Below, piece by piece: positions 33,722 to 55,600 of a DNA stretch of 61,944 nt. The DNA lies in the IMG/VR virus record IMGVR_UViG_3300032268_000572, positions 1 to 61,944 of that record. One strand, written 5' to 3'. The notes below the pieces were generated by a model that saw only the letters and a list, made by a program, of their open reading frames with translations, had not been told where the DNA came from and did not search any database. Every line of letters begins with the position of its first letter. Positions within the stretch are counted from its first letter, which is position 1. Made by a program: the position numbers and the translations under genes. The DNA is from a virus (taxonomy: Duplodnaviria > Caudoviricetes).

Positions 33722-33729
33722 GCGCTCGC

Positions 33730-34500
33730 AAGCTTTAGTTGCTAGTGCTAGATGAACCGATACATTTTCTCTTGGTTGCTTTACGGTGTCATTACTAATC
33801 CATTAGTGAGCATAGGTTCACTGGATAACTATTTTATTACTAACTACATTAGCTAGTTCTTTACTATTGTTTGAGTTCAGACTTGACATTACTAATCAGG
33901 ACTTGTGATGATGGTTGGCTGGCTAGTTGTGATGCTTGTAGATTATTTTTTATCTAACTTAGTCTTGAATTGCTCTAGTAATTCTATAATTAACTTTTAT
34001 TTATGTAGCATCTAGGTGGAGTAGCTCCAGAGTTGTTGATAGCTTATGTTCACTACTTATTAGTTAGTAGAAAATAAATAAATCATAGCAAGGGGGATAG
34101 GACTAAGTAGCTAGATAAAAACTAATTCAACAATTAGATAATGCCTAGTTAAAAACTAAATTTTAGTTGTATTAGTAGAAAATTGATTTTATTCTATAGC
34201 TGAGCTAGTTTCTCACTAGAAAATAAGTAAATATAACTAATTAGCTCCTACTTTTACTAGAAAATAATAGTGCCCTAGATTACCTAGAAAAATAATCACT
34301 AAAAAATAATTATTAGCAGCTCTTTTTTCCTGGAGAAAAAGCTAATTTTATTTTTGCCCTTTGACTGGAGGGGGGGCTGCATTTATGGAAACAATTTCAA
34401 AAACTTCAAAAACAAGTGTCTTCCTTCTCACCGACCAAAAGCAAAATACGTTAATGTACTATCTTTATCTTATCAGTCCGAATCCGCTTCAACTTCTCAC
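33730..34500. other. AT-rich non-coding region (candidate pac site or origin)
   Basis: about 800 bp with no ORF, dense TAG/CTA, TAGAAAAT repeats with 41-bp period, G/C skew flips across it. Confidence 0.5.
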
Positions 34501-34534
34501 TAAGGTTCGTACGTAGCGTGCTATACTGTACATT

Positions 34535-37526: not shown

Positions 37527-38072
37527 ATGAACGATTACTACGAGATGGAAGATGCTTCTTCTAACCCTAAAGATGCACTAGCTTCTCAGCTTGCTAAGTT
37601 ACTTGCCGACACAGTCAACCTATCTTACCTAGCACAAGGTGCTCACTGGAACGTTAAAGGTTCTGACTTTTACCAAATGCATAAGTTTTTTGGCAAGATT
37701 TATGAAGATGTCTCGGGTTCAATAGACCCGCTCGGCGAGAGCATTCTTAAGATGGGCTACGACGCTCCTTACCTACTTTCTGACTTTTCAGCTTTCACTT
37801 CAATAATGCCAATGAGAGTTACCACTGGAGACAAGATGGAGTTTGCTCAAGCTCTATACATTGCTAACCAAGAAATGCTTAGTTGCTTGAACACAGGTTT
37901 CTCTCTAGCAGACGCCTCTAACCAGCAAGGCGTTGCTGACTTCCTAGCTGGAAGAATTGAAATGCATCAGAAGTGGGAGTGGCAACTACGTTCTACTCTT
38001 GGCGTAACTTCCGCCCCTCAGGTTGAGGTAGAGGGAATAGCTCCTTATGCCGAAAACCCGATTCAGTACTGA
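37527..38072 (+). CDS. dps: Dps / ferritin-like DNA protection protein
   Basis: AHWNVKGSDF..MHKFFG.IYED..D.LGE, H.KW.WQL. Confidence 0.9.
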   Translation: MNDYYEMEDASSNPKDALASQLAKLLADTVNLSYLAQGAHWNVKGSDFYQMHKFFGKIYEDVSGSIDPLGESILKMGYDAPYLLSDFSAFTSIMPMRVTTGDKMEFAQALYIANQEMLSCLNTGFSLADASNQQGVADFLAGRIEMHQKWEWQLRSTLGVTSAPQVEVEGIAPYAENPIQY

Positions 38073-41000
38073 GTTAATTGGCGAGTTTGCTTTAACAGCT
38101 GGGGCCAATGATGAGACCAGTGCTGAAAAGCGGGCTCGTGTTGCTACTCAGCTAAGAGACCGCTATGGCCGTTGGGTCGATATGGGTCGCGGTGTTAAAT
38201 TTAAAGTACGTTTACCAAACGGCAAATACCACAACGCACTGGGTCCTTTCACTGGAGATATGACTCCAGATGGTAGAGGCTACATAAAAGTAGAAAACGA
38301 CCCCTACCTACCTAATGGCAACTACCCAGTAGCTTCCAAAAACGCTCAGCAGTATATTGCCCTACTTACTGACGAAGACTTAGCTCAACAAGGCATCGAG
38401 CTAGGTAAAGACGTTGACGGCAATGTAGTTACCGCAAGAGAAGACTCTTCAATTCCTGACCTTGCTGACTTAATAGCAGAAGGAATAGTTTCTGGTTCTC
38501 CTAATAAAGAATTACGTTCTAGCATCACAGGCGAAGAAATCCAAGACATAAAAATTTCAAGCATTGCCAAAGCCTTAAAAGCCGAGGGACGCTTCCCAGT
38601 TCCAAGGCAGAGCTCTCTAGACACTTGGGGCAAAACCTCCGATGTTACAAAAGGCGCGAAGATAGACTACTCAAAAGTTTACGAAGGTATGAGTTCTGAA
38701 GACCCAGAGTTTGCAGAAAAATACCCAACCTTTAATAGTTTTTGGGACAGAGTTGTAGACCTTGCTGTAGACGAGAGGACTCAATCTCCAAACGACTTAA
38801 ACCAAATTAACCAAGAAATGAAGGAAATAAACAAAGGCTACGCTAAGCACGTTCTAGGACTAGACCCAGAAAATGGAACTTTTACTGTTTACAGAAACGC
38901 TATCAATAATGCATTTGAAGAAAAAGACGCTGCAGTTGGATATGTTTCAACTAGTAAAAACCTAGCTTTCGACTACAACGCTGGCACAAGGGCGGGCGAA
39001 CAAGCAAACGGACGCTACGAGATAACAGTAAAGCCAGACGAAGTAAATGGAATGATTGGCTATAGCCAAGTAGAAGACGAGTATGCGCTGACTATTGGTC
39101 AAGGAGTGACTTACCAAGAGGGAAGAGTTAAAAAAGTTGGAGAACTAGAAACTGTTAAAGTAGCTCCTTGGCATGAAGAGGCAGTCGGAAAATTAAAAAG
39201 AGGACAAGGAGCCACTCCTTTTAGGGGCCACTCTTTTGTTGGTCAGTTTGACTTCTTACCAATATCAAAAAACCCCATGCAGGTTGATAAATTACAAGAC
39301 TTCCTTGACGACAACAACATGACAATGGACGATTGGAAGAACAAATTTGACGAGCTCCACGGAGAAGGGGCCTACCAACGTTTTAAAGACTCAGGCCGTG
39401 AAAACCAAGTTTCCTTACAATCTCTAGAAAGGATGTTTGTTGACCTAGGTGACGGCACTTACGGACTAGACATAACCAAGCTTAGCCCTGCTGGCAACGA
39501 CAGCGCAGGTAGCGGTTCCTACGGCGATGCCCAAAACCCAAGTAGCTTTCTTAACGACTACGTTGACAACAAACTAAAGTTTCTCTCACTAATCCAAGAG
39601 ATAACTGGTGAGCCTTTTATGGTCCACAAGAACAACTCTCGAAATAAAGAAGTAGTAGAAAAGGTCAGCCCGCCCGAGCCCGAAGCTGAAAAAATTTCAA
39701 TTTCCGAACTCCCAAACGACACTACAGACTTTGATGAAGAAATTCTTAGTTCTGATTTTGACCAGATAAAGTTTGACATAGCTAAGGCTCCAGACGCAGA
39801 AGAATCTTACGCCCTTTACCAATACCAAGGACCTAAATATGAAGACATAAACAAGTTTGCTAGAGAAAATCCAAACTATAAAGAATCCGAAAATGACCCT
39901 TTGGCAACACGTTTTGCAGAAGAAACAAAGACAATTAACAAAATAGACAGTGCCTTTGAAAACATAAAAATTGCTGAAGACGTTACTGTTTATAGAGGGG
40001 CTGCAATCTCTAAAAGCAGATACGAATCTTTGCTTACAATAAAGCCCGGCGATAAGTTAGTTGACAGCGCTTACATGTCTACCTCTGTTAGCCCGAAAGT
40101 GGCAAAGGGGTTCGCGTACGGTGTTTTTGAGGATGATAAAACTAAGGCAGATGCGCTTGTTCTCAACAAGACTCCAGTTATTTACAAAATTAACGTAAAA
40201 GCTGGACAGCCTGCAATTAGAGTAAGAGACTACACAACCGCTGATGACTTAGGCGAGTCAGAAATTCTTTTATCTAGGGGGGCGTCAATTAAAGTTACAA
40301 ATGTTTCAAAAACTACCTTTGACCCCTTAACTGAAGATGGAGATAGCGTTGAAGTACTTGTTATTGAGGGTGAATACGAGCCAGTTGAAGAATACGTTCA
40401 GCCTCAGTCCTTAAAATTGATTGACAATCCAAAGTCTTCTGAACCAGCCAAAGCCGAGTCAGACACAATCATCGTCGACGGCACAAACACTATTACAGAC
40501 AGAAAAGGTAACACCATCAACTCAGGTGAAGAAGTGGAAATCTCATACGCTATTTATGAAGTTGGTAAGGGCTCTAGAAATGCTGAAAAACCACTAAAAG
40601 CTATTTTTACTGGCTATAAAGAGTCTGATTTTTCTGCTGGAAAAGGTATTGAAACAAAAAACCGTGCTATTTTATACGTTCCAGCGCAGGAAGGAACACT
40701 TGCTGGTTATTACGGAGTAAGTCCATATGTTTTAAATGCAGACCCTAATTCTGATGATTTTAGAGGCGTTGGTGGCACTTCTCCAGTAGATATTGACGGA
40801 TTTAGCGAAAAAAATGCTCTTCCTAGCCCAAAACAAATGACCCCCCTTTCGGAACAAGAGGCAGAATCTGTAATTGACTACACCAACCACAAAGGAAGTT
40901 ACGTAGAAATCAATTCATCCCTAAGAAATGAATCTGTGTCCCCAGAAACTCAAGAAAAAATTGACGTTTTAGATAAAATTATTGGATATAACCAAATTTT

Positions 41001-41355
41001 AGAGGACCAAGACTACTATAGAGGCATTCCTATCCCCCTAGGCCTCACTTTAAAAGAATTTTTAACTAGTTTAGAATCTGGCGAGATAGAAGAGCTCGAG
41101 GAAACTGGCTTTTCTTCAACATCTACTGACGAAAAAATGGCTTCAATCTTTGCTAACAAGTATTTTGGCGGTGGCGTAGTGCTACGTATTAGGGCTAAAG
41201 CTGGGCAAAATGCTTATTATGTCCCTAAGTTCTTGGCTGGGGTTATAGCTAACGAAAACGAAGTAATTCTGCCTAGAGGGCTAAAGTATAAAATAATTAA
41301 TTACGAATTTGACCCCCAAGAAGACAAAGTTTTACTAAACGTAGAAATAGGATAG
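38047..41355 (+). CDS. protein with three ADP-ribosyltransferase domains (two clearly VIP2-like)
   Basis: three R-STS-ExE triads: VYRN/STS/EDE (~38860-39130), VYRG/MSTS/ESE (~39790-40380), YYRG/SSTS/ENE (~40850-41350). Confidence 0.85.
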   Translation: MPKTRFSTELIGEFALTAGANDETSAEKRARVATQLRDRYGRWVDMGRGVKFKVRLPNGKYHNALGPFTGDMTPDGRGYIKVENDPYLPNGNYPVASKNAQQYIALLTDEDLAQQGIELGKDVDGNVVTAREDSSIPDLADLIAEGIVSGSPNKELRSSITGEEIQDIKISSIAKALKAEGRFPVPRQSSLDTWGKTSDVTKGAKIDYSKVYEGMSSEDPEFAEKYPTFNSFWDRVVDLAVDERTQSPNDLNQINQEMKEINKGYAKHVLGLDPENGTFTVYRNAINNAFEEKDAAVGYVSTSKNLAFDYNAGTRAGEQANGRYEITVKPDEVNGMIGYSQVEDEYALTIGQGVTYQEGRVKKVGELETVKVAPWHEEAVGKLKRGQGATPFRGHSFVGQFDFLPISKNPMQVDKLQDFLDDNNMTMDDWKNKFDELHGEGAYQRFKDSGRENQVSLQSLERMFVDLGDGTYGLDITKLSPAGNDSAGSGSYGDAQNPSSFLNDYVDNKLKFLSLIQEITGEPFMVHKNNSRNKEVVEKVSPPEPEAEKISISELPNDTTDFDEEILSSDFDQIKFDIAKAPDAEESYALYQYQGPKYEDINKFARENPNYKESENDPLATRFAEETKTINKIDSAFENIKIAEDVTVYRGAAISKSRYESLLTIKPGDKLVDSAYMSTSVSPKVAKGFAYGVFEDDKTKADALVLNKTPVIYKINVKAGQPAIRVRDYTTADDLGESEILLSRGASIKVTNVSKTTFDPLTEDGDSVEVLVIEGEYEPVEEYVQPQSLKLIDNPKSSEPAKAESDTIIVDGTNTITDRKGNTINSGEEVEISYAIYEVGKGSRNAEKPLKAIFTGYKESDFSAGKGIETKNRAILYVPAQEGTLAGYYGVSPYVLNADPNSDDFRGVGGTSPVDIDGFSEKNALPSPKQMTPLSEQEAESVIDYTNHKGSYVEINSSLRNESVSPETQEKIDVLDKIIGYNQILEDQDYYRGIPIPLGLTLKEFLTSLESGEIEELEETGFSSTSTDEKMASIFANKYFGGGVVLRIRAKAGQNAYYVPKFLAGVIANENEVILPRGLKYKIINYEFDPQEDKVLLNVEIG

Positions 41356-41364
41356 ACTAAAATC

Positions 41365-41589
41365 ATGGAAAAAGATAAAACCCCTAAAAAACCATTCCCA
41401 GCTCAGAAAAGCTCCCTAGGTGAGAGAATGAACGACACCTCTGCCATGATGATTAAGAAAGATGGCAAGTGGGTTTGGCTTGATACAGGGGAAGAAGTAG
41501 AAAATCCTCCCGAGGATGGCACTCCTACTTTAGAACCAGACAAAAAAGAAAAAGAGTACGGCGAATTTTATAAGCCTTCAGACAAATAA
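41365..41589 (+). CDS. small hypothetical protein after the ART gene
   Basis: 74-aa ORF 9 bp after the stop. Confidence 0.6.
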   Translation: MEKDKTPKKPFPAQKSSLGERMNDTSAMMIKKDGKWVWLDTGEEVENPPEDGTPTLEPDKKEKEYGEFYKPSDK

Positions 41590-41665: not shown

Positions 41666-44600
41666 TTGGGCGTGAAATCTGAAATTCATGCTCTGATTGC
41701 GTCCTTGGTCTTCAACCAAGAGACTCCATCGGAGCCACAGGATTTCTCAGTATCCAAAATTACTGAGTCGGTGTCGCTACTGGTCGAAAACGGCAATGAC
41801 GGAGTTGCCCCAGAGCGTAGAGCCACTTTAAAATCTGCCCTTATTGTTGCAGAGCGTTCCTTAGTTGCCAGTGCAAATCGTAAGCTTGAGACTAGAGCCT
41901 TCAACCTAGTCAGAGACGTAACTAATTTCATCACCCTATCTAAAGATGGCAGAGTAGGTGAGTTTGCTCCGACTAACACAGACTTACTTTCTATTGGACA
42001 CCCTCTTTCTACAGCCCCGCACTCTATGGGGACTAAAGAGCTAAGAACTGCTCGCTCTAGGTGGATTGCAGCTGACCCAAGAATTTCTGTAGAGTATCGC
42101 GCTCTAGTTTCCTCAGCTTATGGTTCAGAACCTAACTCTGTAGAGCAGAACTTTGCAATTGCAAGATTGCAAGCTCTACCTAAAGGCTCGATACCAGCTG
42201 AACTTATTATTTCTTCCACCATAGAAGCTTTAACTGCTGGAATTGGTGATGGAAACTCTTCTGCTGCACGTAGAGCCCGCGTAAAGCTACAGTGGCGTGA
42301 CAGGTATGGACGCTGGGTGGAAATGGGCCGTGGCACCATGTTCAAGCTACGTATGCGTGACGGTTCTATTAAAGACGTTAGAGGAAAGTTTGTTGGTGGA
42401 ACTTCCAGCCCAGCTTTTGGACGTGTACTTGTTCGTAATAGCGGAGACGCTAACATTCCAGATGCTGTATACCTAGTCAACTCTAGAAATGGAGAAGTTT
42501 TTGACTTCGAGCTTGCTGAAGGAATTCTAGAAAAATCTGGAATTGATGCTTCTAAGGTCGAAAAGCCTGCAACTATCACAGAGCAACTTGATAAAGACAT
42601 TCAAAACATTGCAACCATTAGAACACTCTCTCCTAACTCACTGGATGACGAGCTTGCTGGTGGCTCTACTGACGAAGAAAAAGCTACTGCTAAAGAGTTA
42701 CAAGAAAAGTCACCTATCGCTAAGTTGCCAGCAGGCGCCGAAGCTGAGTCCGTTCCTCAAGAAGCCCTAGTTAACTTTGACGAAAAGTCTTTTGCTGAAA
42801 AAGTAGCTTTCAACACCGACGTTGACATTCCACTTGTTGACCAAAGATTTAAAGAATTTTTAAGCAAAGATAAGAACCTAAAAAACACCCTTGACCCTAA
42901 AAAGTTTGGCAAGTACCTAAGCTCAGACTCGCCAGTTTCAGACGCCCTGTCTGACTTTGATGCTGGCACTATAAACAAACAAGACTTGGTCAACATGTTC
43001 GAAGAGGGCTCATACGAAACTAGCTTGGGCGGTAAGAATAAAGAGCTATCTAACGTTCTACAGGGCTTGGGAGACTACTTTAAGAAAGACTATGACCCTC
43101 AAGACTACTCAGACGCAGATAAGTCAGAGCCTATTGCTTTGTTGCCAGAAACAGTCCCCACAGCTCCAGTAGCTGAAGGCGGAATACTAGAGGGCTTTGA
43201 CTACGACAAGGCAAAAGCAGATTCAAGCTATGTCGACTCTTTCTTGGATGGATTCGACGCTGGTGTCTACGCTGCTCCTGAAAAGGACATCTCTGTTTTA
43301 ACAGACTCTCAGAAAGAGGCTTACGAAGCTGGACTGTCATTAGGTGACAAGAAAAACACTGAAGCTTTAGTACTCGCTCAAGATGAATTCCCTAGGTACG
43401 GTCAAGAAGGTTTTGAGGCGGACTCGAAGCAAGCACTTTCTGAAGCTATCTCTGAAATTTCAAAGCCTTTCTATGACGAGCTTGAAAAACAGCAGGCCGA
43501 ATCTATGGCTAATGAAGCTCAAGCCACAGAAGAAGACAAAGTTGTAGGAGAGAGATTCACTGAGTGGCAGGTTCCAGCTGGAGCTTACCCACTTCAAAAT
43601 CAAGAACCTTACGAGGCGTCTGGGGCTCTTTCTGACATCTATGGTGCAGATGCAACTGATGACCCTAAAGTACTTGCTAGCTCTTTTGACTCTGAAATTT
43701 TGGAAGAAGCTTTAACTAAATCTATATCTGGTGATGGAGATTCAGAAGTCGATTTTGCAGATGCAGGACCAGTACCAATTCCAGCTGAAGCTCTCTACGA
43801 TGCTCTACGCGAGCAGGGTGTAAACGCTGACTCAGTTGTTGCAAAAGCATATGATGCTATTTCTGGTAAGAGCGAAAATCAAATCAACCTAAAGTCTTTT
43901 AGAGAAAAAAAGCCTGCAGGACAAATTGCCAAGCTAGACGCAAAGGTCATCGAGAAGTCTTCTGCTACCGAGCTAAACAAGTTTTTAGTTAAAGACGAAT
44001 TAGCAGGTAAAGCAGTAGACCTAATTGAAGCAGGCAAAACTGGAGATGGTTTTGGAGATGCTGACCTTCAAATTCTTGCCGACTCAATTAACTCAATTGA
44101 AATACCAAAGACTCAGCCAATAGATTTCTTAGAGCGTCCAGTAGGAAAGCTTCTAGCAGAATACTTACCTTGGGCGTTTAGTGATGACGAAAGCAAGAAG
44201 CAGGCTTTCAGGGGTCTTCTTGGTTTGGTTACTATTTCTGACGGCCACGAAGGTCTTGTTACCGACAAAGGCGGAGTTCTAGACAAAATCTTCAAGAAGT
44301 CTGAGTTCTACGACGAATCTGCACAGGACCCAACAGCAAAGCTTAGAGAAGCAATCTACCCAGATGGTTACACTTACACTGACTTCCTAAAAAGTAAGTC
44401 CAGAGTTGCTATTGGAGAAGAAGATGGCAATAGCCCAAACTCTTTTGCTGGAGCTACTTACAAACTAGCTGCAAAGCTTTCTAAAGAACAGACCACAGAC
44501 TCTCCAGGTGGATTTGCTAGAGGAATTATCAACCCTGGCCAAGAGGCTATAGACGCTTACACTACTGTTGGCAACGTCGTAAACATGGACTTAAGACCAT

Positions 44601-47600
44601 TCAGCGGTACTTACAACGAAGCTGCTAAATTTGCCAAGCTTTCCTTCCCAAGCAAACAGCCTGACGCAATCATTTTTACTCTAGAAGGCGCTCTTGAGGG
44701 AATAGACACTAGAGCACTAAGCAACTACTCAGAAGAAGCTGAAATTCTTGCTAGCGGTAAATACGAAGTTGTAGAGGCTACCAAGCTTGATGGCCCTGCA
44801 GGTGGCTCAAAGTATGTAGATAGAAGAGTATTCGAAGTAACTTTAAAGCCAGTAGATAAAGAACAGGGTATAGACCTAACTAAGTTTAAAACAGTAGATA
44901 AGATGGTTTCGCTTCTTCAAATAGGAGACTTAGTACCTAAAACTTTTCTCACAAGTAAGGGCGCTCAAGATGCTGTATCTGAAGAGCGAAAAAAGGACCC
45001 AAACTTTGAACTTCCACCCTTAGAGGAGGTTGTCGGGTTTAAAGCATCTGACGGCTTTATGGAAAAAATAGTTGTATTAAAAAACTTAAAAACTGGGGAA
45101 ACAAGGGACTTCAGAGCTCGGGGGACAACAGTTCTTGTAGACGTTCGTGTTCCAATAGACAGTAAACTTCCTGGTGACAATAGTCCACGCTTGCTACCGA
45201 AAGAAGGCAAGCCATCTGGAGAACCAGAGTTCTACATAGCTAACCTTGACGACTTATCAATGGTCTACGACCTTAAAGACTACAAGCAGGTTTCTGGCCA
45301 ACTTGGTTCAAACAAGGGTGGAATTTTTGAAGACTCTACTGGCAAGCAGATTTACGTTAAAGAGCCTAAGACAGACTTGCACGGAGATAATGAGGTTCTA
45401 GCTTCGGCTCTCTACGAGCTAGCAGGAGTGCCAGCTGTAAAGGTAAGAAATGGAGAGCTAGCTGATGGCACCAAAGTTACTTTCTCCGAAATGGTTCCAA
45501 ACTCTAATGCTGACTTTGCTCAAAAGGTAAACGACCCTGAATACCGCAAAAAAGTCCAAGACGGCTTTGTTGTAGACGCTTGGCTTGCCAACTGGGACGT
45601 TGCTGGTACTGGATTTGACAACATTGTTTCAGATGCCAACGATGAGCCTGTACGTGTAGACCCAGGTGGCGCTCTACTATTCCGCGCCCAAGGAGCACCT
45701 AAGGGAAATGCCTTTAACGACAAGGTTACAGAGCTAGAAACCCTTGTAGACCCTAGCCAAAACGCTTGGTCAGCCAAGACCTTCCAAGACATGTCTGAGC
45801 AGGACAAGGCAGAATCTGCCAAGAAGCTGCTTGACATTTCCAACGAAGACATAGATAATTATGTCAATGCTTCTATTACCGATGAAGAGGCAAGAACCAA
45901 GCTTTCAGACATACTGAAGGCCCGTAGAGCTACAATTTTAAACAGATATTCGCTAGAAGAAGGAGTTAAAGATGGCGGAGCAGGACAACAGCAACCAGAA
46001 CCAGGAAGTTCAGCTGGACCCGAAGGACAAGGAATTGTTCCTGAAGACGTGGAACCTCAAGGAGGGGGAGTTGACGGACAAGGAGATTCAGATGGCAATC
46101 GACCTTGGGCAACTCTAGAAAATAAACTAGAGCCACACTCTAGAACTCAAGAAATACAGGAGTCAGGTTCACCTACCCCAGACATTTATGAACTGGACGC
46201 GGAAAAATACGCAACCGATTTCGTCAAGATGATGGAGAAGCTGAAAGAAAACAATAAGCACGCTTCTTCCGTATACATTTATGACTTAGAAGATTACAAG
46301 AAGATGCGCTTGTTCTCAACAGCTGACGGTACTGCAGGATTTGGATTAAAGCCAGACGGAGACATTGTTTCCGTATTTGTTTACGGCGACTCGCCTCACA
46401 AGGGAACTTCAGCCAACTTACTAGCTCAAGCCGTTGAGCTCGGTGGTAACAAGCTTGACGCTTACGACACAATTCTTCCTAAAATTTACGCCAAGGCTGG
46501 ATTTAGAACTATTTCTAGAGTTCCTTGGAATGAAGACGAAGCCGATTCTTCTTGGGACAAAGAACTTTACAAAGACTTTAAAAACGGAGAGCCTGACGTA
46601 GTTGCTATGGCTTACGACCCAACTAGATTTGGCTCTACTTATGACCCAACCGAGGGTGAGTACTTTGACGACTACAACGACGCTATGGCAGCTCGTGACC
46701 AGTGGATAGTAAACAACCAAACACCTTCAGAGCCAAACTTTTCTAGCCCAACTGCTATCGACACTTCTGAAGGTTCCAACCTAGAAGAGCAACTACAACA
46801 AGCTATTGATAATGGCGAGTCCGTTTCGTTTAACTACAACGACAAGGCACGTGTTGTTATTCCTAAGAGCATTTGGACTAACCCAAAGAATGGAAACGTA
46901 AATCTCTACGCCATCGACGAAGATGGAAACAAGAAAAACTACACCGTTAGCAAGATTCAGCCTTCTACAGCTTTAGAGGCTGGAGAAGAGTCAGGTTTCT
47001 TTGAAGAGCCCACTGGTGACAACGTTCCAGAGCTGTCTGGTTACACGCTAGAGCAGGCTTCTAACGGAACTTACTACGCCCCTAACATCACCGCAGAAGA
47101 TATTTATGCTCTAAGGAATGGGGAGAAAAAGCCTTCTCAGTTCCCCTTTGCTGTAACCAACGACCCAGCTAATGGAAACGTTCTTTACTTTGACAAAAAT
47201 GGAGTCAAGCGTTGGGGACAGTTTGGTGCCTCAGGTGCCGTTCTAAAAAGAGACACTAACAACGGTTCTTATGAAGTTCTTTTGGTTAAGCGTAGCTCAC
47301 AGAATTCTACTGACCAAGGATTTTGGTCCGTACCTAGTGGTGCCCACAACAACATCGAAGATGTAAATGTGCCGGGTGCAACCTCTAAGAGGGAACTCAC
47401 CGAGGAACTAGGAATTGTTCTAGGAACAAGTAACATAAACAGCGTTGAAGTTGAAGTGAGCCCAGAGGATTGGAATTTTACTTACGACATCATAAACGTA
47501 GACCCAGCTATGGACCTAGCAAGCATCTCTACTCTAAACAAAGAAATAGAAGAATACACTTGGGTCAACCCTCAGCAGTTAGTTCAGATGGAGAGTGAAG

Positions 47601-50600
47601 GACAGCTTCACCCAGCTATGACTGAAGAGGTAGTAAAAGACGTTCTAAGCATGGCTAATGGCACAACTGCTAAGTACAGTGGAACAGCTAGCGCAATGAA
47701 GGCTCCTCCAAGATTAATTAACTCTGCTGGAAAAGAGTCTCAGCTATACCCTGAGGCGGTTCTTAATGGAAAAGTTCTTCGTAGCACTAACTACCCAAAC
47801 AACACAATGATGTTTGGTTACGGAACTTTAGGCTCTACTAACCACTCGGCCGACACCATACTTTCAACAAACTCAGACGGAACTGTTGATGTTTCATTTT
47901 CAGACGAAAACGAGCAGTCTAAGACCACATTTAGTAGCTTAGATTCTGCTAAAGCTTGGCTAGGCGACAAGTACGCAACTAAGTCAAATTCTCAAGTGAA
48001 CCCAATCACTAACAATCCAGTTGGCGATGGAGCATTAGAAGAATCTCAAACTATTCACAAGGGCGGTTATGCTAAGCCTGCAACTCAGCCTCAAGTTGAT
48101 TCAATTAAAAAGATGCTCGATGTCAAAGATGTTCCCGAAGATAAAAAGTCAGAAATTCAGAGCTCTCTTGATAAGAGTAGCTTTGTAATTGGCGAAGCTG
48201 GTCAATACATTAGCTACCTAAAGAGCTTGCCAGAACTCGAGCCTGAGCAAGCTTCTAATGACAGTAATTTTGTGGACAACACTGTAAACCCAGAAGTTGT
48301 TCAAGCTTCACTAGTTGACCCAGCTTTGACCCCTCAAAAAGGCTCGCCTTTCAATTCAGCTGACGACATTCTTGACCCAGCTAAGATTCTTGAGGCACTA
48401 AAGCTAAGCCACAAAGACAGCTACGAGCTTGAAAACGGTGACGTTGCTCTATACAGCACCACCTACACTACTGGCTACGGCAAGAGCTACAAGTACGAAC
48501 TGATTGCACGTCGCACTAAGAAAGAGCGTTTCTTTGCCTACGTACGCGAGACCGACATGCAGACTGGAACTGTAAGAGTATTTAAGGCAACTAAAGAAGT
48601 TCACTCTTACAAGGCAGCTATGAATAAGCTAGTTTCTGCTAAGAACGGTCTTACATCTTCTGACCCAAGAAACTGGTTCACTAAACTTGCCAAGTCAAAG
48701 GTAGAAACTGTATTAGCTAAGAACGACCTTTCTTCTATAGCTGATGAAATGCTTGGTTCAAAAACTGGCTCCGAGCTACAGGGCTCTTTGGAAGACTTGG
48801 TTGCTGGTCTTGGTGGTCAAAGCTTTAACATTGACAAGGCCATCATCCAAAAGCTTCAGAAGAATTCATCTAACCTTCCAGCTGGATTTGTTGACAATGT
48901 AATTAACAAGATGGTTGAGAGTAAGGCTAAAGAAGCAGACAACATCTCAGACCAGATTCTGGGAATCGCAGACCCACCGCCATTCCCACACATGTCTTAC
49001 AACGGACAGCAACTAAGTGTTGGAGACTATGTTGACTGGACTGACATTACTAGTGGCAAGGTCCACAGAGGTAAGGTTGTCCACGTAAAGTACAACCACG
49101 ACTCTAAGGGTTACGTTTATTCCGACCAAACTCTAGTTGAATTTACAGACCTAACCAACCAGCGTTGGAGGGTTAGCTCTAACCTAGTCAAGGTCGACAA
49201 GGGCTCACCTATTAGCGAGCCATTCTTTGCAAAGCTAGAAGAAAACGTAGAGCAAAAACTTACTCCAATTCTAAGCACTACAGAGAAGCCAGACATTGAC
49301 TTAGCAAAGCAAAAAGCTGTAGAGGATTACCAAAAAGCTCTAATGGCAGCAAAGCTAGTACCTAGTAAGCCTGACCTAGACTTGACTCCAGCCCAAGAAG
49401 CTGGTCTATCAGTTGAAATGACTACTCCAGATGTTGAGGTAACTCCTCAGCCTAACGGCTCAGTTGTTGTTGGAGACGAAGCCTCTGGTACTTACTCCAT
49501 TGTTCAAGAAGACGGAACCACTACCTACTACTTGAACGACGTTCCAGTATTTCAATCTGAGCCAAAAACTGTAGATTCTTCAACAGTTTCTGCAGTAGAA
49601 GAAGTTGTAGCTACCGTAACCGCTTCTCCAGAAAATACTGTCGAGCCAGCTCAGTTGGCTGACATTGTGGGCGATGCTAAGAAAGCAACTAGCACTCTAC
49701 CAGAGCAGGAATTAGATTCTGTTTACGGAGAGTATGGAGTAAAAATTCTAGGTCCAGACGACGTTGTCAGCACTGGTGGTAAGAAAGCCAAATTTAAGTA
49801 TTTGAAAGAAGTTTCCGAGCTAAAAGTTGGAGACATAGTAAGAAAAGCTACTGGAAGTAAAAAACACTATTACCAAATTTTGGAGAAAACTAGTCGCAAC
49901 CAGTACTTAGTTAGGTTAATTACCCCCACCACCACCGAGAGCTGGACACAAAAATGGAAGGCTCATGGAAAAATACAGACTGTAGGAATTTCTCCTTGGT
50001 ATGGTTACAAGCACGTATACAGACCAACTGAAGTTACTATTGCTGAAGGATACTTTAAGCCTAAAACTCCTAAGGTCTCACCCTCACAGGACAAAATTAA
50101 TACAAAAAATCTAAATGTCACTGCCACTCCTCAGCAATTGGCTGCTGAATCTGTAGATAAAAAATCTGACGAGTCTAACGCGTACTTTGGTATTACAGGT
50201 GAGATTAGTGACTTGCCTTACAACGAACTAGCTGTTTCTACTAACGCTACCCAGCTTTGGAAAACTGGCTTTGATTCAATTAAGGTAAAGACCGCCGATG
50301 AAAAGTATGTAATTCCTGGCGCCCTAGTTAATGAAAAAGATGGGGACTCTAGCGGTGTGGTGATTTCTACCAACAAGCCTGACTCCGAGCTGTCGGTGAT
50401 TTGGAATTCTGGCTCTAAGCAGTCAACAGTTGAAACTTTAAGCTCAAAAGAAGTTAACGACACTGGGATGTGGCTATCTCCAGAAAAAGCTAAGTCTTTA
50501 GGAATATTTGTTGATGAAGTAGCTATTCAATTCGGTAAAGACAGTATTGCTCAAAAAATTAAGTCCCTCGAAGAATCAAATGCCACCTTTATTGAGAGTA

Positions 50601-52042
50601 AAAAGAAAGAGATTGAGTACAAGAAGCTTAAAGCAGCAGCTTCCGTTAAAGGAACTGGTACTCAGTCTATAAAGGTAGAAAAAGAGCTCAGCTGGTCTGG
50701 CTCAGAGTTAGATAAAGTTAGTAGCCTAGACACCATATTAAAAACGGTGGCTTCTAACGACGACAAGGGAGCCTACGGTCAGGAGGTCTTAATTGACTCT
50801 GGAGACGTAGAAGACAATAAACTTAGAGTTTATACAGCTTATGATTCAAAGGGAAATAAAGAAACTAGACTTACCTACACCCTAACAAGCTGGGCAACAG
50901 ACAGTAACCCTAACGATTCTGGTGAAAAATCAGAGTTTATTCAGCAATTGTCTAATAACTCAGAAGTCACTACTTCTAGCAGACTTCAGTACAGAAGATT
51001 CCAGCGTCTAGAGAACAAGCTTGTAGAAAATGGAACTTGGAACGATGGCTCCATAGACAACTCTTCACTAGGTACTACTTATACTTACCCTCTTAAGGAC
51101 AACCAAGGCCAAGTAATCGGTACTGTAAGAATTCACAGAGCCAATAAAGATGCTTCTACTCCAAAATTCTTAGGACAAAGTTCGGCACCTATTGCTTACC
51201 ACAACAAGGTTGACATTTCTATAAATGGAGATGCAACTCCAGAGCAGGTACAGCTAGCATTACAGCAAGGTGGAGTTACAGAGTCTAGACCTGCTACTAA
51301 AGAAGACATCAGAGTGCTGGCTGAGAATAAAATTATTGGAATTTTTGGTCAAAAAGCAGACGGCTCTATAAACTTTGAGGGCGAGCTTCGTCAAAAAATT
51401 CTTGACGACGTAAAGTCTAGTTATGGAATAGACGCCACGGACTTAACACCAACTCAAGATGAAAATGGTGAAATTCAATTCTTGCTTCCAGAGGAATTTG
51501 GCAAGAAAATGGCTGAGATAACTAACACTAAGGTTTTCACTCACTCATGGAACAGTTCTTTGCCAAATGACGCTCAAGGCAAGGCTGGCTTCTTATTTAA
51601 GCTACTCTCTGACGACGGACTCAGGGCTACCACTTACAGATGGGCCTCTGGAATAAACAACTCAGGAATGTCCAGCACATCAGATGGCTATAGAGTAGGG
51701 GCTAACTACATCTTTACACGCAAGAGCTCGATGGAAGCTAGTCAAGGCGGTTATGGACTGAAGTTCCACTTTGACGCTTCTAAATTGCTACGTAGACTAG
51801 ACTTTTATGCAAATAGGAGTGACTCTTTTGGAGCAAAGTCCGAGAAAGACATGCTAGCTGAGATGGGGAATGACTATGTATACGAAATTTTGTTCAAGGG
51901 AACGATTTCTTGGGCTGATTTGTCTATGATTAGCATAGACTCTGAAACTAGAAAGATTTTGTTACAGATGTTATTAGATAGTGGCGATGCTAAATTTGGC
52001 GAAAACACCGCTCAGAGTATCTTGGGAATTGATAATAAATGA
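41666..52042 (+). CDS. giant polyvalent protein (ART, HipA/PI3K-like kinase, GNAT, WYL, Nudix, C-terminal ART-like)
   Basis: 3458-aa open frame; domain motifs given in findings; start codon uncertain (TTG/GTG). Confidence 0.85.
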   Translation: MGVKSEIHALIASLVFNQETPSEPQDFSVSKITESVSLLVENGNDGVAPERRATLKSALIVAERSLVASANRKLETRAFNLVRDVTNFITLSKDGRVGEFAPTNTDLLSIGHPLSTAPHSMGTKELRTARSRWIAADPRISVEYRALVSSAYGSEPNSVEQNFAIARLQALPKGSIPAELIISSTIEALTAGIGDGNSSAARRARVKLQWRDRYGRWVEMGRGTMFKLRMRDGSIKDVRGKFVGGTSSPAFGRVLVRNSGDANIPDAVYLVNSRNGEVFDFELAEGILEKSGIDASKVEKPATITEQLDKDIQNIATIRTLSPNSLDDELAGGSTDEEKATAKELQEKSPIAKLPAGAEAESVPQEALVNFDEKSFAEKVAFNTDVDIPLVDQRFKEFLSKDKNLKNTLDPKKFGKYLSSDSPVSDALSDFDAGTINKQDLVNMFEEGSYETSLGGKNKELSNVLQGLGDYFKKDYDPQDYSDADKSEPIALLPETVPTAPVAEGGILEGFDYDKAKADSSYVDSFLDGFDAGVYAAPEKDISVLTDSQKEAYEAGLSLGDKKNTEALVLAQDEFPRYGQEGFEADSKQALSEAISEISKPFYDELEKQQAESMANEAQATEEDKVVGERFTEWQVPAGAYPLQNQEPYEASGALSDIYGADATDDPKVLASSFDSEILEEALTKSISGDGDSEVDFADAGPVPIPAEALYDALREQGVNADSVVAKAYDAISGKSENQINLKSFREKKPAGQIAKLDAKVIEKSSATELNKFLVKDELAGKAVDLIEAGKTGDGFGDADLQILADSINSIEIPKTQPIDFLERPVGKLLAEYLPWAFSDDESKKQAFRGLLGLVTISDGHEGLVTDKGGVLDKIFKKSEFYDESAQDPTAKLREAIYPDGYTYTDFLKSKSRVAIGEEDGNSPNSFAGATYKLAAKLSKEQTTDSPGGFARGIINPGQEAIDAYTTVGNVVNMDLRPFSGTYNEAAKFAKLSFPSKQPDAIIFTLEGALEGIDTRALSNYSEEAEILASGKYEVVEATKLDGPAGGSKYVDRRVFEVTLKPVDKEQGIDLTKFKTVDKMVSLLQIGDLVPKTFLTSKGAQDAVSEERKKDPNFELPPLEEVVGFKASDGFMEKIVVLKNLKTGETRDFRARGTTVLVDVRVPIDSKLPGDNSPRLLPKEGKPSGEPEFYIANLDDLSMVYDLKDYKQVSGQLGSNKGGIFEDSTGKQIYVKEPKTDLHGDNEVLASALYELAGVPAVKVRNGELADGTKVTFSEMVPNSNADFAQKVNDPEYRKKVQDGFVVDAWLANWDVAGTGFDNIVSDANDEPVRVDPGGALLFRAQGAPKGNAFNDKVTELETLVDPSQNAWSAKTFQDMSEQDKAESAKKLLDISNEDIDNYVNASITDEEARTKLSDILKARRATILNRYSLEEGVKDGGAGQQQPEPGSSAGPEGQGIVPEDVEPQGGGVDGQGDSDGNRPWATLENKLEPHSRTQEIQESGSPTPDIYELDAEKYATDFVKMMEKLKENNKHASSVYIYDLEDYKKMRLFSTADGTAGFGLKPDGDIVSVFVYGDSPHKGTSANLLAQAVELGGNKLDAYDTILPKIYAKAGFRTISRVPWNEDEADSSWDKELYKDFKNGEPDVVAMAYDPTRFGSTYDPTEGEYFDDYNDAMAARDQWIVNNQTPSEPNFSSPTAIDTSEGSNLEEQLQQAIDNGESVSFNYNDKARVVIPKSIWTNPKNGNVNLYAIDEDGNKKNYTVSKIQPSTALEAGEESGFFEEPTGDNVPELSGYTLEQASNGTYYAPNITAEDIYALRNGEKKPSQFPFAVTNDPANGNVLYFDKNGVKRWGQFGASGAVLKRDTNNGSYEVLLVKRSSQNSTDQGFWSVPSGAHNNIEDVNVPGATSKRELTEELGIVLGTSNINSVEVEVSPEDWNFTYDIINVDPAMDLASISTLNKEIEEYTWVNPQQLVQMESEGQLHPAMTEEVVKDVLSMANGTTAKYSGTASAMKAPPRLINSAGKESQLYPEAVLNGKVLRSTNYPNNTMMFGYGTLGSTNHSADTILSTNSDGTVDVSFSDENEQSKTTFSSLDSAKAWLGDKYATKSNSQVNPITNNPVGDGALEESQTIHKGGYAKPATQPQVDSIKKMLDVKDVPEDKKSEIQSSLDKSSFVIGEAGQYISYLKSLPELEPEQASNDSNFVDNTVNPEVVQASLVDPALTPQKGSPFNSADDILDPAKILEALKLSHKDSYELENGDVALYSTTYTTGYGKSYKYELIARRTKKERFFAYVRETDMQTGTVRVFKATKEVHSYKAAMNKLVSAKNGLTSSDPRNWFTKLAKSKVETVLAKNDLSSIADEMLGSKTGSELQGSLEDLVAGLGGQSFNIDKAIIQKLQKNSSNLPAGFVDNVINKMVESKAKEADNISDQILGIADPPPFPHMSYNGQQLSVGDYVDWTDITSGKVHRGKVVHVKYNHDSKGYVYSDQTLVEFTDLTNQRWRVSSNLVKVDKGSPISEPFFAKLEENVEQKLTPILSTTEKPDIDLAKQKAVEDYQKALMAAKLVPSKPDLDLTPAQEAGLSVEMTTPDVEVTPQPNGSVVVGDEASGTYSIVQEDGTTTYYLNDVPVFQSEPKTVDSSTVSAVEEVVATVTASPENTVEPAQLADIVGDAKKATSTLPEQELDSVYGEYGVKILGPDDVVSTGGKKAKFKYLKEVSELKVGDIVRKATGSKKHYYQILEKTSRNQYLVRLITPTTTESWTQKWKAHGKIQTVGISPWYGYKHVYRPTEVTIAEGYFKPKTPKVSPSQDKINTKNLNVTATPQQLAAESVDKKSDESNAYFGITGEISDLPYNELAVSTNATQLWKTGFDSIKVKTADEKYVIPGALVNEKDGDSSGVVISTNKPDSELSVIWNSGSKQSTVETLSSKEVNDTGMWLSPEKAKSLGIFVDEVAIQFGKDSIAQKIKSLEESNATFIESKKKEIEYKKLKAAASVKGTGTQSIKVEKELSWSGSELDKVSSLDTILKTVASNDDKGAYGQEVLIDSGDVEDNKLRVYTAYDSKGNKETRLTYTLTSWATDSNPNDSGEKSEFIQQLSNNSEVTTSSRLQYRRFQRLENKLVENGTWNDGSIDNSSLGTTYTYPLKDNQGQVIGTVRIHRANKDASTPKFLGQSSAPIAYHNKVDISINGDATPEQVQLALQQGGVTESRPATKEDIRVLAENKIIGIFGQKADGSINFEGELRQKILDDVKSSYGIDATDLTPTQDENGEIQFLLPEEFGKKMAEITNTKVFTHSWNSSLPNDAQGKAGFLFKLLSDDGLRATTYRWASGINNSGMSSTSDGYRVGANYIFTRKSSMEASQGGYGLKFHFDASKLLRRLDFYANRSDSFGAKSEKDMLAEMGNDYVYEILFKGTISWADLSMISIDSETRKILLQMLLDSGDAKFGENTAQSILGIDNK

Positions 52043-52662: not shown

Positions 52663-55600
52663 ATGTCTAAAATTGTAGGTCGTTCTGGTTCTAAGCTACT
52701 AGTTAGAGGCACTAGTTTTGCTGTTGTCTATGACACCGAAGCTAGCTTAATTATTGATAGCGGAAAAGCCGACGATTTAGCTGCTTCTCGAATTTGGAAA
52801 AATACCAACGAACTTATTTCCCCCGAAGCTAACTCTTTAGTGGCTAGTGCGCTAGAAGGATTAGAAGCAGGCACCATCACTGCAGCTGGACGCAGGCTTT
52901 TTACAATTCCATCTGGCGTAAAAGCTGAAGCTAAAAAAGCACTCCAATGGCGTAGAGAAGAAAAGCGTGGAGGCACTCCTGTTGGGCTAAACACTGCTCG
53001 CACTCTAGCTAGAGGCGGACAAATAGGTCTAGAAAAAATTCGCCACATTGCAAAATACTTTCCTCGTCACGAAGTTGACAAAAAAGGTAAGGGCTGGTCT
53101 GTAGGAGAAGATAACTTCCCATCTAACGGACGTATCGCTTGGGCACTTTGGGGTGGAGATGCTGGTTGGCGTTGGGCCCGTGCAATCGTAGAGCGTGAAG
53201 ACAAGAAAGCCATGAAGGCTGATGCTTACGTTAATAGACTAGGGGCAGATGTCTCTGCTTTTAAAAAAGCTTTTGAAAACGGAGATGGCTTAGGGCCAGA
53301 ATTTATTGCCAGAGTTCGTATGGACGGTACTGGAATTGACAGAATTTACAAGGTTGACCTAGATGGCGAAGTTTACTTCTGGGACGATGGCAACTGGGAC
53401 GACCTAGGCTATGTAGACGGGGACATTTGGACTTATGACAAGTCAATAGATGACCCTTATGACACCGTAGCTAAGCAACACATAATGATTGACCCAGAGT
53501 CAGCGGTTGTTATTTGCGCCAGACTACAGACTCTACCTTTTGACAATGTTTCTGTATTTGACATTGATGCTGAAGAAGCCAAGATTGCTCAAGACTACTT
53601 GATTAATGAAATAGATGAAATTGACTTTATTGATAGGGTAATAACCGCTGCAGGAGAGACTGGAATCAAAGTTGCCGATGCTGATGGAGTCTACAGCCCA
53701 GAAGAGCGCTCTCAAAAGGCTACTCAGCAGGTAAGAAATGCTGCAGGAAGGTTCTCTAAGCAAGGTTCTAGAGTTACCGTTAATGGCAATCGCCAAGGAA
53801 CTATAACTTCAATTAATCCAGCTAACAAAAGCGTAGTTGTTAAATATGACGATGGTGCTACCGAAACTGTTCCAGCTTCTTCCACTAGGGCAGTACAGGA
53901 AAATGTTCCAGTAAGCTCTAACGTTTCTGATGTAAACATTTCAGACGTTACCCCCTTAGATGTTTCTGGAATTCTTGGAGAGCCTAGGACACCAATTGAC
54001 CGTCCTCAAGCTCAGATGCCTGGAACTTTACCAGCCCTCACTAGAGATGACTTGACTAGTTTAATGTCTAACTGGCCTGCTTGGGTCCAATCGCAAAGAA
54101 ATGCTTTCTCACCTCTACCAGTTTCAACTCAGGTCAGTAAAGACCCAAAAAATTTAACAAAAGAGTACCAAGAAGACCTTTACAAAAAAACTGGAATTAA
54201 GCACTCTTTTGACCCCTATGACCACCCCCTATTGAAAAAGTTTTTCTCTAAGAGAGATAGTGAGGGCCGTAGCCCTAACGCTATCTACGCAGCAGCCACT
54301 AAAGACGAGCGTCCAAAAGAACTCACCCCAGCAACTTCTGATATTCAGCCTCTTTATATGGCTATTGTTTCTCCCGAGGACCTAAGAGCAGTTATGGATT
54401 TAGTTGCTCTTATTCCAGCCAGCTCTAAATCTAACGAACCCATGACTTATGTTCGTAAGGAAGGAAAATGGGTACGAGAGCCTAACATTCTTGCTGACTT
54501 AAACTCTGCCACTCCACCACCAGTTGTACCTCTAGACATAGATACTTTAGATTCTGTACTAAAGCAAGCTGACGGTTTAGTTGCTTCTGCATACACTAAA
54601 GACTTAGTGCTAACAGTGCTTTGGGGTCCTGATAAAGAAAACATTGCAGACGCTATTCTGGCCGCTGGTGGGCTTGACCGTAACAGGGGTAACGCAGAAG
54701 AACTTAGAAAATATTGGACACGTGGCAAGGGTGGTGCAAAAATTCGTTGGGGCACCCCTGGCGACTGGACCCGTTGCGTTAGAAACTTACGTAAGTATAT
54801 TGGACCTCGTTCCAAAGGCTATTGCGCTCTCCGCCACAAGGAGATGAATGGGGTATGGCCTGGCGACAGAAAGAACCGTCAGAAATTTAGCTCAAACGTT
54901 AAGCTAGGAACCTTTAGTATTCAATTTTTGAACAATTCTGAAACAGTTTTGTCAGTGTCTACTCTCACAGCTTCTGGAGACTTCTCTGAAGAATTTAGCT
55001 ACGAAGGCTCTAAATTTATAATCCCTCTAGTGATTCCAGAAGAGCTAGAGTCTGGGGACGGTAGAAAGTTTAAGAAGGACTCCATCTCCTTTAGAGAGCT
55101 ACCATTACCGTTAATGTGGCAGATAAAGACTGACGATGGCCACGCTGGGTCCGTAGTTGTTGGAAGAATTGACCACATGGAGCGAACAGAGCAAGGTATC
55201 GGCAATGCTTATGGAGTATTTGATACAGGTCCTTACGCAAAAGAAGTAGAGCGTTTAGTTAAATACAAGTTTATTCGTGGAGTATCAGCTGACATGGACC
55301 AGTTTGAGGCCGAGGAACAAGAAGACACCAATGACAAGGAAAATGCTAAAAAGTCTAAGGACTCTATTGGCAAAACCAAAATTAGTATAAATAAAGCTAG
55401 GGTTATGGGTGTTACAATAGTACCAAAGCCAGCTTTCCAAGAATGCCAAATTTTCCTTGACGCACAGGAAGATGGCGATTACCAGGAGGATACTTTGATT
55501 CCAACAGATGGAATTTACGTTGATGAAATGGAGCCACAGGACGCCTCAAGTCTTGTAGCTTGTGGCATAGTCGCAAGCTCTATCTTAGTTACACCGCCAG

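Follow-up and report, generated by a model that had tools for sequence, protein, structure and literature searches.

Why would a phage place a protein of 3458 residues among its head genes, and what would this protein do? We asked this of a window of 61,944 nucleotides, which is the whole of the IMG/VR virus record IMGVR_UViG_3300032268_000572, a linear record rated about 36% complete by CheckV. The gene in question lies at 41666-52042 on the + strand, and its product is called the giant protein here. An initial annotation had described it as a polyvalent protein with at least six enzymatic or sensor domains inside the head operon. Our results suggested, with a probability of about 0.6, that the giant protein is a polyvalent effector of mosaic build, encoded by a siphovirus with kin among the actinobacteriophages, and that it is packaged into the virion, ejected and active early in infection. 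A multi-domain protein of the polyvalent type was indeed found in the head module. Among the annotated domains, the Nudix and the ADP-ribosyltransferase (ART)-like ones stood and the WYL-like one was moderately supported; the kinase was only probable, the GNAT assignment was weak, and the C-terminal domain matched no Pfam or PDB entry.

The open reading frame and its conserved domains

The giant gene is an uninterrupted frame of 3458 codons. Such a frame in DNA of about 44% G+C is beyond chance, so the open reading frame (ORF) is real, and an identical protein of 3458 residues (P0002 in the protein collection) is on record, which confirmed the annotated frame. The listed start is the TTG at 41666, with a Shine-Dalgarno-like stretch, GAGGAAGG, just 5' of it; an in-frame GTG at 41672, two codons on, is an equally plausible start. 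No DNA nearly identical to the gene was found among GenBank phages by megablast, and self-comparison of the protein revealed no internal repeats. Long linkers that are acidic or rich in glycine and proline lie between the modules, for example at residues 300-600 and 1440-1495.

All of the motif strings quoted in the initial annotation were present at their claimed places in the translation. The ART-like strings FARG, PFS and EEAEIL lie at residues 949-1028, and the kinase-like series GSNKGG..YVK..NEVLA..DAWLANWD..DNI..RVDPGG at residues 1214-1335. The GNAT-like, WYL-like and Nudix strings were found as well, together with the C-terminal FTH, GANYIF and YEILFK. These motifs exceed chance, because each sits in a block that is kept in relatives and the quoted residues are invariant or nearly invariant positions of it. 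The alignments held 39 sequences for the kinase-like block, 9 for the ART-like, 11 for the WYL-like and 20 for the C-terminal one, and the Nudix box was likewise conserved.

The Nudix domain (residues 1839-2000; 47180..47665, +) was confirmed by profile comparison. PF00293 matched residues 1866-1976 with 26 bits against a gathering cut-off of 21.1 (E 9.9e-6), and the region also matched phrog_1198 and the RenU Nudix hydrolase in the PDB (6uuf, E 5.2e-6). The expected Nudix box is G-x5-E-x7-RE-U-x-EE-x-G-U. In the giant protein it reads G-AHNNI-E, followed by 10 residues instead of 7 and by an intact RELTEELGI. The RE..EE..G core is kept in relatives, and the three-residue insertion is absent from the more distant ones, which have the canonical spacing. 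Pfam NUDIX was also matched in 7 of 14 other relatives returned by our first protein search. The annotated Nudix hydrolase was thus borne out at the level of the sequence, both by Pfam and by its intact RELTEELG box.

The ART-like domain (residues 930-1075; 44453..44890, +) had no match to ADPrib_exo_Tox (PF03496) in the Pfam scan at E<=1. We built a profile from nine sequences of this block and set it against one that started from the neighbour's PF03496 domain and the relatives of that domain. hhalign aligned the two with a probability of 93.9% (E 1.5e-7), and the catalytic motifs were in register. The residues concerned are R952, S980-G-T982 and E1024-A-E1026; R952 and E1026 are invariant in the nine sequences, and S980/T982 and E1024 are conserved. 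Homology to a Pfam-validated ART, with R, S-x-T and E-x-E aligned, gives good support to the annotated ART, which we predict to be an ADP-ribosyltransferase of the R-S-ExE type. An exact-pattern scan of IMG/VR with this region returned no match.

The WYL-like stretch (residues 1700-1770; 46763..46975, +) is predicted to be a small beta-rich domain. It was the sole candidate for PF13280 (WYL) in the window (E 0.015, 11.7 bits; scores with this model ran from 11.7 to 12.4 bits, below the cut-off of 21.8), and 7 of its 11 relatives matched this model at E<=1. The profile of the 11 sequences matched the mycobacterial regulator PafBC in the PDB (7p5x and 9fnd, E 0.0019; 6sj9, E 0.032) at chain residues 149-221, which we take to be the WYL domain. 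R1729 (R40 of the aligned segment) is invariant. The PafBC match speaks for the annotated domain and the Pfam score falls short of it, so that the WYL-like assignment is moderately supported. Two tandem copies of the domain, upstream of the kinase-like domain, were seen in L001 (the Actinomycetia phage DSL-LC01; 5169-5711), L110 (4767-5327) and L109 (6243-6737); in the window it lies downstream.

The kinase-like domain (residues 1190-1440; 45233..45985, +) had been annotated as HipA/PI3K-like. Its catalytic pattern held: a Gly-rich loop, K1232, E1243, D1304, N1309, D1311, N1319 and D1332-x-G-G are invariant in the 39 sequences. A family match did not follow from its own sequence. Pfam recognized no kinase family there, and searches of the window with PF07804 and PF00454 gave no candidates. 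The PDB profile search returned only LepB, which was not significant (E 0.59). HipA_C was matched below threshold in 11 of the 39 relatives (best E 0.0013), and HipA membership was rejected on a direct hhalign comparison with E. coli HipA (E 0.18, probability 0.3%). The domain does align with the relative P0014, residues 2131-2165 of which match PF00454 (PI3_PI4_kinase, E 5e-7). hmmsearch gave an independent E-value of 0.012 in a database of 14 sequences, and hhalign gave E 0.0019 with a probability of 14.6%. The alignment runs from the Gly loop to the DxG and overlaps the PI3_PI4_kinase catalytic-loop match of P0014. We conclude that the domain is probably an enzyme akin to protein kinases, whose catalytic loop follows a PI3/4K- or HipA-like pattern. 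Given the weak matches in databases and the negative outcome with HipA, we file it in neither family.

This domain has 273 relatives in IMG/VR. It is also found within gp117 of Pseudomonas phage Dolphis, a 1222-residue 'ADP-ribosyltransferase', and it shares one ORF with a MuF-like segment at three IMG/VR loci (L134, L136 and L143). The relative P0012 (4075 residues) has two kinase-like domains, at residues 635-862 and, in a divergent form, at 2561-2692, and a Zeta_toxin domain at 3761-3879.

The GNAT-like block (residues 1495-1655; 46148..46630, +) belongs to phrog_2563 (E 2.7e-13), a family of unknown function. The GNAT models PF00583, PF13508 and PF13673 had no candidates in the window, none of 19 relatives matched a GNAT family, and PDB profile searches with the domain returned nothing. 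When it was compared with 12 PF00583-validated domains, hhalign gave E 0.0039-0.0045 and a probability of about 8% over 48 aligned columns, which is not significant; the register placed 'IVSVFVY..KG..LLAQAV' on GNAT motif A and 'IYAKAGF' on the terminal 'Y.k.GF'. Because the GNAT families were unmatched and hhalign was not significant, the claim that the protein acetylates host targets was not supported, and the GNAT assignment is weak.

The block itself is very common, with 4429 representative clusters at E<=1e-3. Among 144 new top matches, 68 were proteins of at least 2000 residues and 10 were shorter than 300 residues, and only 6 carried the kinase-like domain. In IMG/VR the region was found at one locus only, and a language-model atlas search with the GNAT-like and WYL-like region gave no named match. 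Distant relatives occur in 56 Streptomyces phage records, and many of the rows listed were deposited as 'acetyltransferase'; Lika gp75, deposited under this name, had no Pfam match. The block also forms the C-terminus of gp4 of the Microbacterium phage Barnstormer, a 524-residue 'minor capsid protein' that is encoded between portal and scaffold and starts with a VG15-family domain.

The C-terminal domain or domains (residues 2990-3458; 50633..52039, +) are the best-kept part of the family. H3293, R3325, S3336, D3340, Y3348, R3377, N3383, D3386, E3407 and K3411 are invariant in the alignment of 20 sequences, in which the annotated FTH, GANYIF and YEILFK motifs are conserved. No PDB match was found for this domain and no Pfam match either, also in none of the 20 relatives, and PF00644, PF12120, PF15633 and PF18760 had no candidates in the window. 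A second ART of the R-S-E type was considered here and rejected (hhalign probability of 0.1% against the neighbour ART profile). In a protein-language-model search, the nearest named clusters were DarT/PARP, Arr and Tox-ART-HYD1 (0.84-0.85, a lead only), and the spacing of H3293, Y3348 and E3407 fits an ART of the H-Y-E type. We treat this possible identity as a lead only.

A mosaic family in a head-gene slot

The family was surveyed at 80 loci of IMG/VR that had been selected by their kinase-like domain and, separately, in the 14 other relatives mentioned above. The frame that bears the kinase-like domain is complete in 63 of the 80 loci and ranges from 245 to 5212 residues (median 1923). In the same ORF, the N-terminal region was found at 19 loci, the C-terminal domain at 25 and both at 17, with varying interiors; at the 25 loci the C-terminal domain mostly lies within 50 residues of the stop. 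At 44 loci the kinase-like domain alone is held in common. The conserved middle region (residues 604-900; 43475..44365, +) was found by tblastn in 16-18 loci. The window's full domain set was found at none of the 80 and recurs only in close protein-database relatives.

The 14 protein-search relatives have 2213-4245 residues and carry differing subsets of the blocks. Besides NUDIX, Pfam matched RNase_T in two of them, Zeta_toxin in one and PI3_PI4_kinase in one. P0003, P0005, P0006 and P0008 are collinear with the giant protein from the kinase-like domain to the C-terminus, and P0007 and P0009 are without the WYL-like stretch. Another conserved module (residues 2090-2573; 47933..49384, +) is common to P0012, P0013, P0014 and gp82 of the Microbacterium phage Pumpernickel. 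P0015 carries MPTase-PolyVal, ArdC-N and UvrD-type helicase domains and shares residues 32-244 and 663-811 with the giant protein; these shared segments and hallmark domains tie the family to the published polyvalent proteins. Further family relatives were found in Microbacterium and Gordonia phages from soil, as well as in Pseudomonas and Yersinia phages. As judged from these comparisons, the giants appear to be a mosaic family of about 1000-5300 residues, in which an N-terminal region and a C-terminal domain surround swappable interior modules.

Two adjacent segments make up the N-terminal part. Residues 1-190 (41666..42235, +) are specific to the giant family and are conserved in 15 IMG/VR relatives at 35-42% identity. 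In one homologue this region contains an in-frame stop (L092:6941-7585), for which a split gene, a pseudogene or a sequencing error is possible. A module of about 110 residues follows (residues 190-300; 42233..42565, +), which is homologous to the start of the ART protein encoded upstream. Giant residues 171-338 and the first 164 residues of this neighbour are 37% identical (E 1e-20). The core of the module reads QxRDxxGRFxxMGGG and is followed by a beta-rich stretch, and Q209, R211, D212, G215 and G221 are invariant. It also opens Pumpernickel gp82 and the DSL-LC01 gene after the portal, deposited as 'cytoplasmic protein'. No family or structure match was found for the module; the only PDB hit, the phage baseplate hub 8fqc, has a similar short motif and was not significant (E 0.21). 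We regard it as a candidate head-incorporation module. The best argument for a common capsid route, though an indirect one, is that two adjacent head-module effectors start with the same module.

The annotated location in a head operon was confirmed by Pfam and PHROG matches of the flanking genes. The large terminase TerL (32303-33721) comes before the portal (35732-37513; phrog_776, E 4e-101), a ferritin/Dps-like protein (37527-38072, +; PF00210, E 3e-16) and the 1102-residue ART protein (38047-41355, +). Downstream of the giant gene are an ORF of 203 residues, a 1539-residue protease/scaffold-like fusion (52663-57282, +) recognized by PHROG matches, and then the gene of the major head protein at 57421-59523. 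In 52 of the 80 loci, one or more of the window's head genes lie nearby, in the same order. The recurring order is portal, Dps (not always present), ART protein (likewise), giant, 203-residue ORF, protease/scaffold fusion and major capsid protein.

The upstream ART protein has its ADPrib_exo_Tox domain at residues 577-757 (PF03496, E 2.8e-37; also phrog_802/3895), and its C-terminus gave a weak head-morphogenesis match (phrog_34890, E 1.3e-4). As the gene directly upstream of the giant, it is a second candidate packaged effector. The gap of 310 bases between the two genes holds a small frame of 74 codons from ATG to TAA (41365-41589, +), read by eye. The ferritin/Dps-like gene is an unusual member of a head module, and it stands directly after the portal in many related IMG/VR contigs too. 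The 1539-residue fusion draws matches from PHROGs for portal, for head maturation protease and for virion structural protein (residues 793-1195); its DSL-LC01 counterpart is three ORFs deposited as 'capsid maturation protease'. In the approximately 800 bases after TerL (33722-34534) there is no ORF of at least 80 residues on either strand. The Pumpernickel terminase (L002 1771-5615) was deposited as two genes, 'terminase' and 'terminase, ATPase domain', which are separated by two small ones.

The major head protein was matched by 207 GenBank phage records. All but two of these are named after actinobacterial host genera, and the exceptions are DSL-LC01 and a 'Dulem' record. The best match was that of DSL-LC01 (72% identity), and the closest relative came from lake water. 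We therefore consider the source phage to be probably a siphovirus related to actinobacteriophages.

Proposed action and competing explanations

We propose that a frame made of the N-terminal region, the shared module and the C-terminal domain carries exchangeable modules. Besides the Nudix hydrolase, these are an ADP-ribosyltransferase of the R-S-ExE type, the atypical kinase-like domain, a WYL-like barrel that would bind a ligand and possibly an acetyltransferase. The giant gene would be expressed with the head genes, and its product would most likely be loaded into the procapsid via the shared module. It would then be ejected along with the DNA and be active in the first minutes of infection. 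Host proteins would be ADP-ribosylated and probably phosphorylated, and nucleoside diphosphates linked to another moiety (NDP-X), such as ADP-ribose- or NAD-derived defence signals, would be hydrolysed.

Several points weigh against this proposal. Packaging and ejection were read from gene position, the shared module and a published concept, and the substrates, the timing and any processing are inferences too. Neither a MuF or portal domain nor any other known packaging domain was detected in the giant protein by Pfam or PHROG, and Pfam found none of the polyvalent hallmarks (MPTase-PolyVal, ArdC-N, ART-PolyVal) in it, PF18760 having no candidate in the window. For three of the six annotated calls, namely the kinase, the GNAT and the C-terminal domain, there was no significant match to any curated family. 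The host was judged solely from relatedness to actinobacteriophages, and no WhiB gene was found in the window, which is a fragment (36% complete). Finally, about 1900 of the 3458 residues have no domain assignment in Pfam or PHROG, the conserved blocks at residues 604-900 and 2090-2573 among them, and a mainly structural role is possible.

On such a structural account, the giant protein would chiefly be an internal head, ejection or channel-forming protein, like the T7 core proteins or the non-polymerase parts of N4 gp50. The essential tasks would fall to its conserved ends and its long unassigned stretches, and its enzymes would be accessory. This agrees with the large unassigned portion, with the fixed gene slot among morphogenesis genes, and with a family in which the N-terminal region and the C-terminal domain are kept and the interior varies. 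For N4 gp50, the N-terminal region is credited with injection and the C-terminal one with encapsidation (PMC5512222). However, the ART catalytic residues, the Nudix box and the kinase-like motifs are conserved in relatives, which argues for selection on enzymatic function, and even the C-terminal domain has enzyme-like invariant polar residues. We consider a chiefly structural protein unlikely, and such a role would be compatible with that of an effector.

The protein might also stay out of the virion, either as a late cytoplasmic factor or as a toxin released at lysis against eukaryotic grazers (a 'Trojan horse') or, as proposed for MuF polymorphic toxins, against competing bacteria. The ART domains do fall into the R-S-E group of exoenzyme/VIP2-like enzymes, such ARTs have been interpreted as anti-eukaryote toxins in freshwater phages (PMC6802176), phage-encoded MuF toxins are on record (PMC5576092), and the closest relative is from lake water. 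This explanation seems improbable to us. The giant protein showed neither a secretion signal nor a domain for membrane translocation, the Nudix, WYL-like and kinase-like modules suit the interior of a bacterial cell, and packaging fits better with the gene position and with an N-terminal module common to a head-module neighbour. The relatives in soil phages of Microbacterium and Gordonia and in Pseudomonas and Yersinia phages also suggest that grazed plankton is not the only setting of the family. A polyprotein cut at its low-complexity linkers, by the prohead protease or by itself, into small enzymes packaged or acting singly would agree with the long linkers and the large protease/scaffold-like fusion encoded two genes downstream. 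Modules of this kind do stand alone elsewhere (the 10 short GNAT-like proteins among 144, and kinase-bearing ORFs down to 245 residues), and P1 DdrB is processed before packaging (PMC5512222). Yet N4 gp50 is packaged unprocessed according to the same source, the Pfam scan found no peptidase domain in the giant protein, and no cleavage motif was identified. We find cleavage quite unlikely, and regard it as a variant of the packaged effector rather than a true alternative.

A broader version of the packaged-effector proposal can be put forward tentatively, with the odds against it. The N-terminal region with its QxRDxxGRF..MGGG module and the C-terminal domain may be a dedicated capsid-loading and ejection frame for interchangeable multi-enzyme cargo, in actinobacterial siphoviruses and in some phages of Gram-negative hosts. 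Its cargo would come from at least three large uncurated families, which are the kinase-like one, the GNAT-like one found mostly in proteins of 1000-4200 residues, and the C-terminal one, which may be a third ART, of the H-Y-E type. If this were true, the frame would be an uncharted phage counterpart of polymorphic toxin systems.

If the giants are packaged and injected, they would form a large natural library of host-takeover or anti-defence enzymes for the first minutes of infection, in hosts (freshwater and soil actinobacteria) whose phage-host molecular biology is almost unstudied. The kinase-like, GNAT-like and C-terminal modules are abundant in metagenomes and gave no Pfam match in our scans, so that thousands of proteins would gain an annotation once the folds and substrates of these modules are defined. 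As a candidate capsid-targeting signal that lends itself to testing, there is the N-terminal module common to the two adjacent effectors of the head module.

Comparison with known systems

The concept of polyvalent, virion-packaged effectors has already been published. Polyvalent proteins combine domains such as ART, kinase and GNAT, and their packaging and injection have been predicted (Iyer, Burroughs, Anand, de Souza and Aravind 2017, PMC5512222). The giant protein resembles them as one very large phage polypeptide with several conflict-type domains, encoded beside head genes. Such proteins have several (2-15) distinct conflict-type domains in one polypeptide, and the giant protein has Nudix, ART and WYL-like domains plus the kinase-like and GNAT-like blocks. 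It differs in having none of the Pfam hallmarks and in its ART, which is of the R-S-ExE exoenzyme type. The kinases described in PMC5512222 are truncated Ser/Thr/Tyr-type enzymes of Verrucomicrobia and Bacteroidetes prophages, whereas that of the giant protein has a PI3/4K- or HipA-like loop pattern. As far as that survey was accessible, Nudix appears in it solely beside the InPase domain or fused to it, and not as a recurrent polyvalent domain.

MuF-fusion effectors offer a second comparison. Fusions of ART and Nudix domains to MuF or portal proteins are frequent; injection has been predicted for these domains, and a role against defence based on NAD or ADP-ribose has been proposed. A Nudix domain was present in less than 1% of the surveyed phages other than myoviruses (Iyer et al. 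2022, PMC9503650). MuF toxins encoded by phages were described by Jamet et al. (2017, PMC5576092). The likeness lies in a head-module gene next to the portal with enzymatic cargo (ART, Nudix) thought to be delivered by the capsid. It extends to the neighbouring ART protein, with its weak head-morphogenesis match, and to relatives that fuse the kinase-like or GNAT-like domain to minor-capsid-protein domains. In contrast to MuF effectors with one C-terminal toxin, the giant protein has many cargo domains, no immunity gene is evident, and the shared module is another, unclassified N-terminal domain.

For the proposed mechanism, T4 Alt and N4 gp50 are working precedents. Alt is an ART of the R-S-E type that is packaged in the head, injected, and modifies the host RNA polymerase; gp50 is a virion protein of 3500 residues with separate injection, enzymatic and encapsidation regions, and it is packaged without being processed (both PMC5512222). 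Alt differs as a single-domain effector of a myovirus, and gp50 has no sequence relation to the giant protein. Kinship with the N4 virion RNA polymerase, considered for its size, was dropped when no polymerase match appeared in Pfam, PHROGs or the PDB.

The closest named counterparts are the giant of DSL-LC01 (WJZ48510, 3289 residues) and Pumpernickel gp82 (2235 residues), both deposited as 'hypothetical protein'. Both lie in the slot between portal and protease/capsid genes and have the N-terminal module. The DSL-LC01 giant further agrees with the window's protein in its kinase-like domain, at 51% identity, and in its middle region and C-terminal domain, and it has the WYL-like repeat twice. 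By tblastn, neither has the GNAT-like or the Nudix module.

The initial annotation had suggested that the domain combination may be undescribed. The polyvalent kind of protein is known, and the suggestion appears to hold for the combination itself. The giant family was not found in our literature search, which ran outside the supplementary architecture lists of PMC5512222. As compared with the systems above, what appears new is the combination of ART, kinase-like, GNAT-like, WYL-like and Nudix domains, together with an N- and C-terminal frame in a fixed head-gene slot, a shared N-terminal module, and three abundant modules for which our scans gave no Pfam match.

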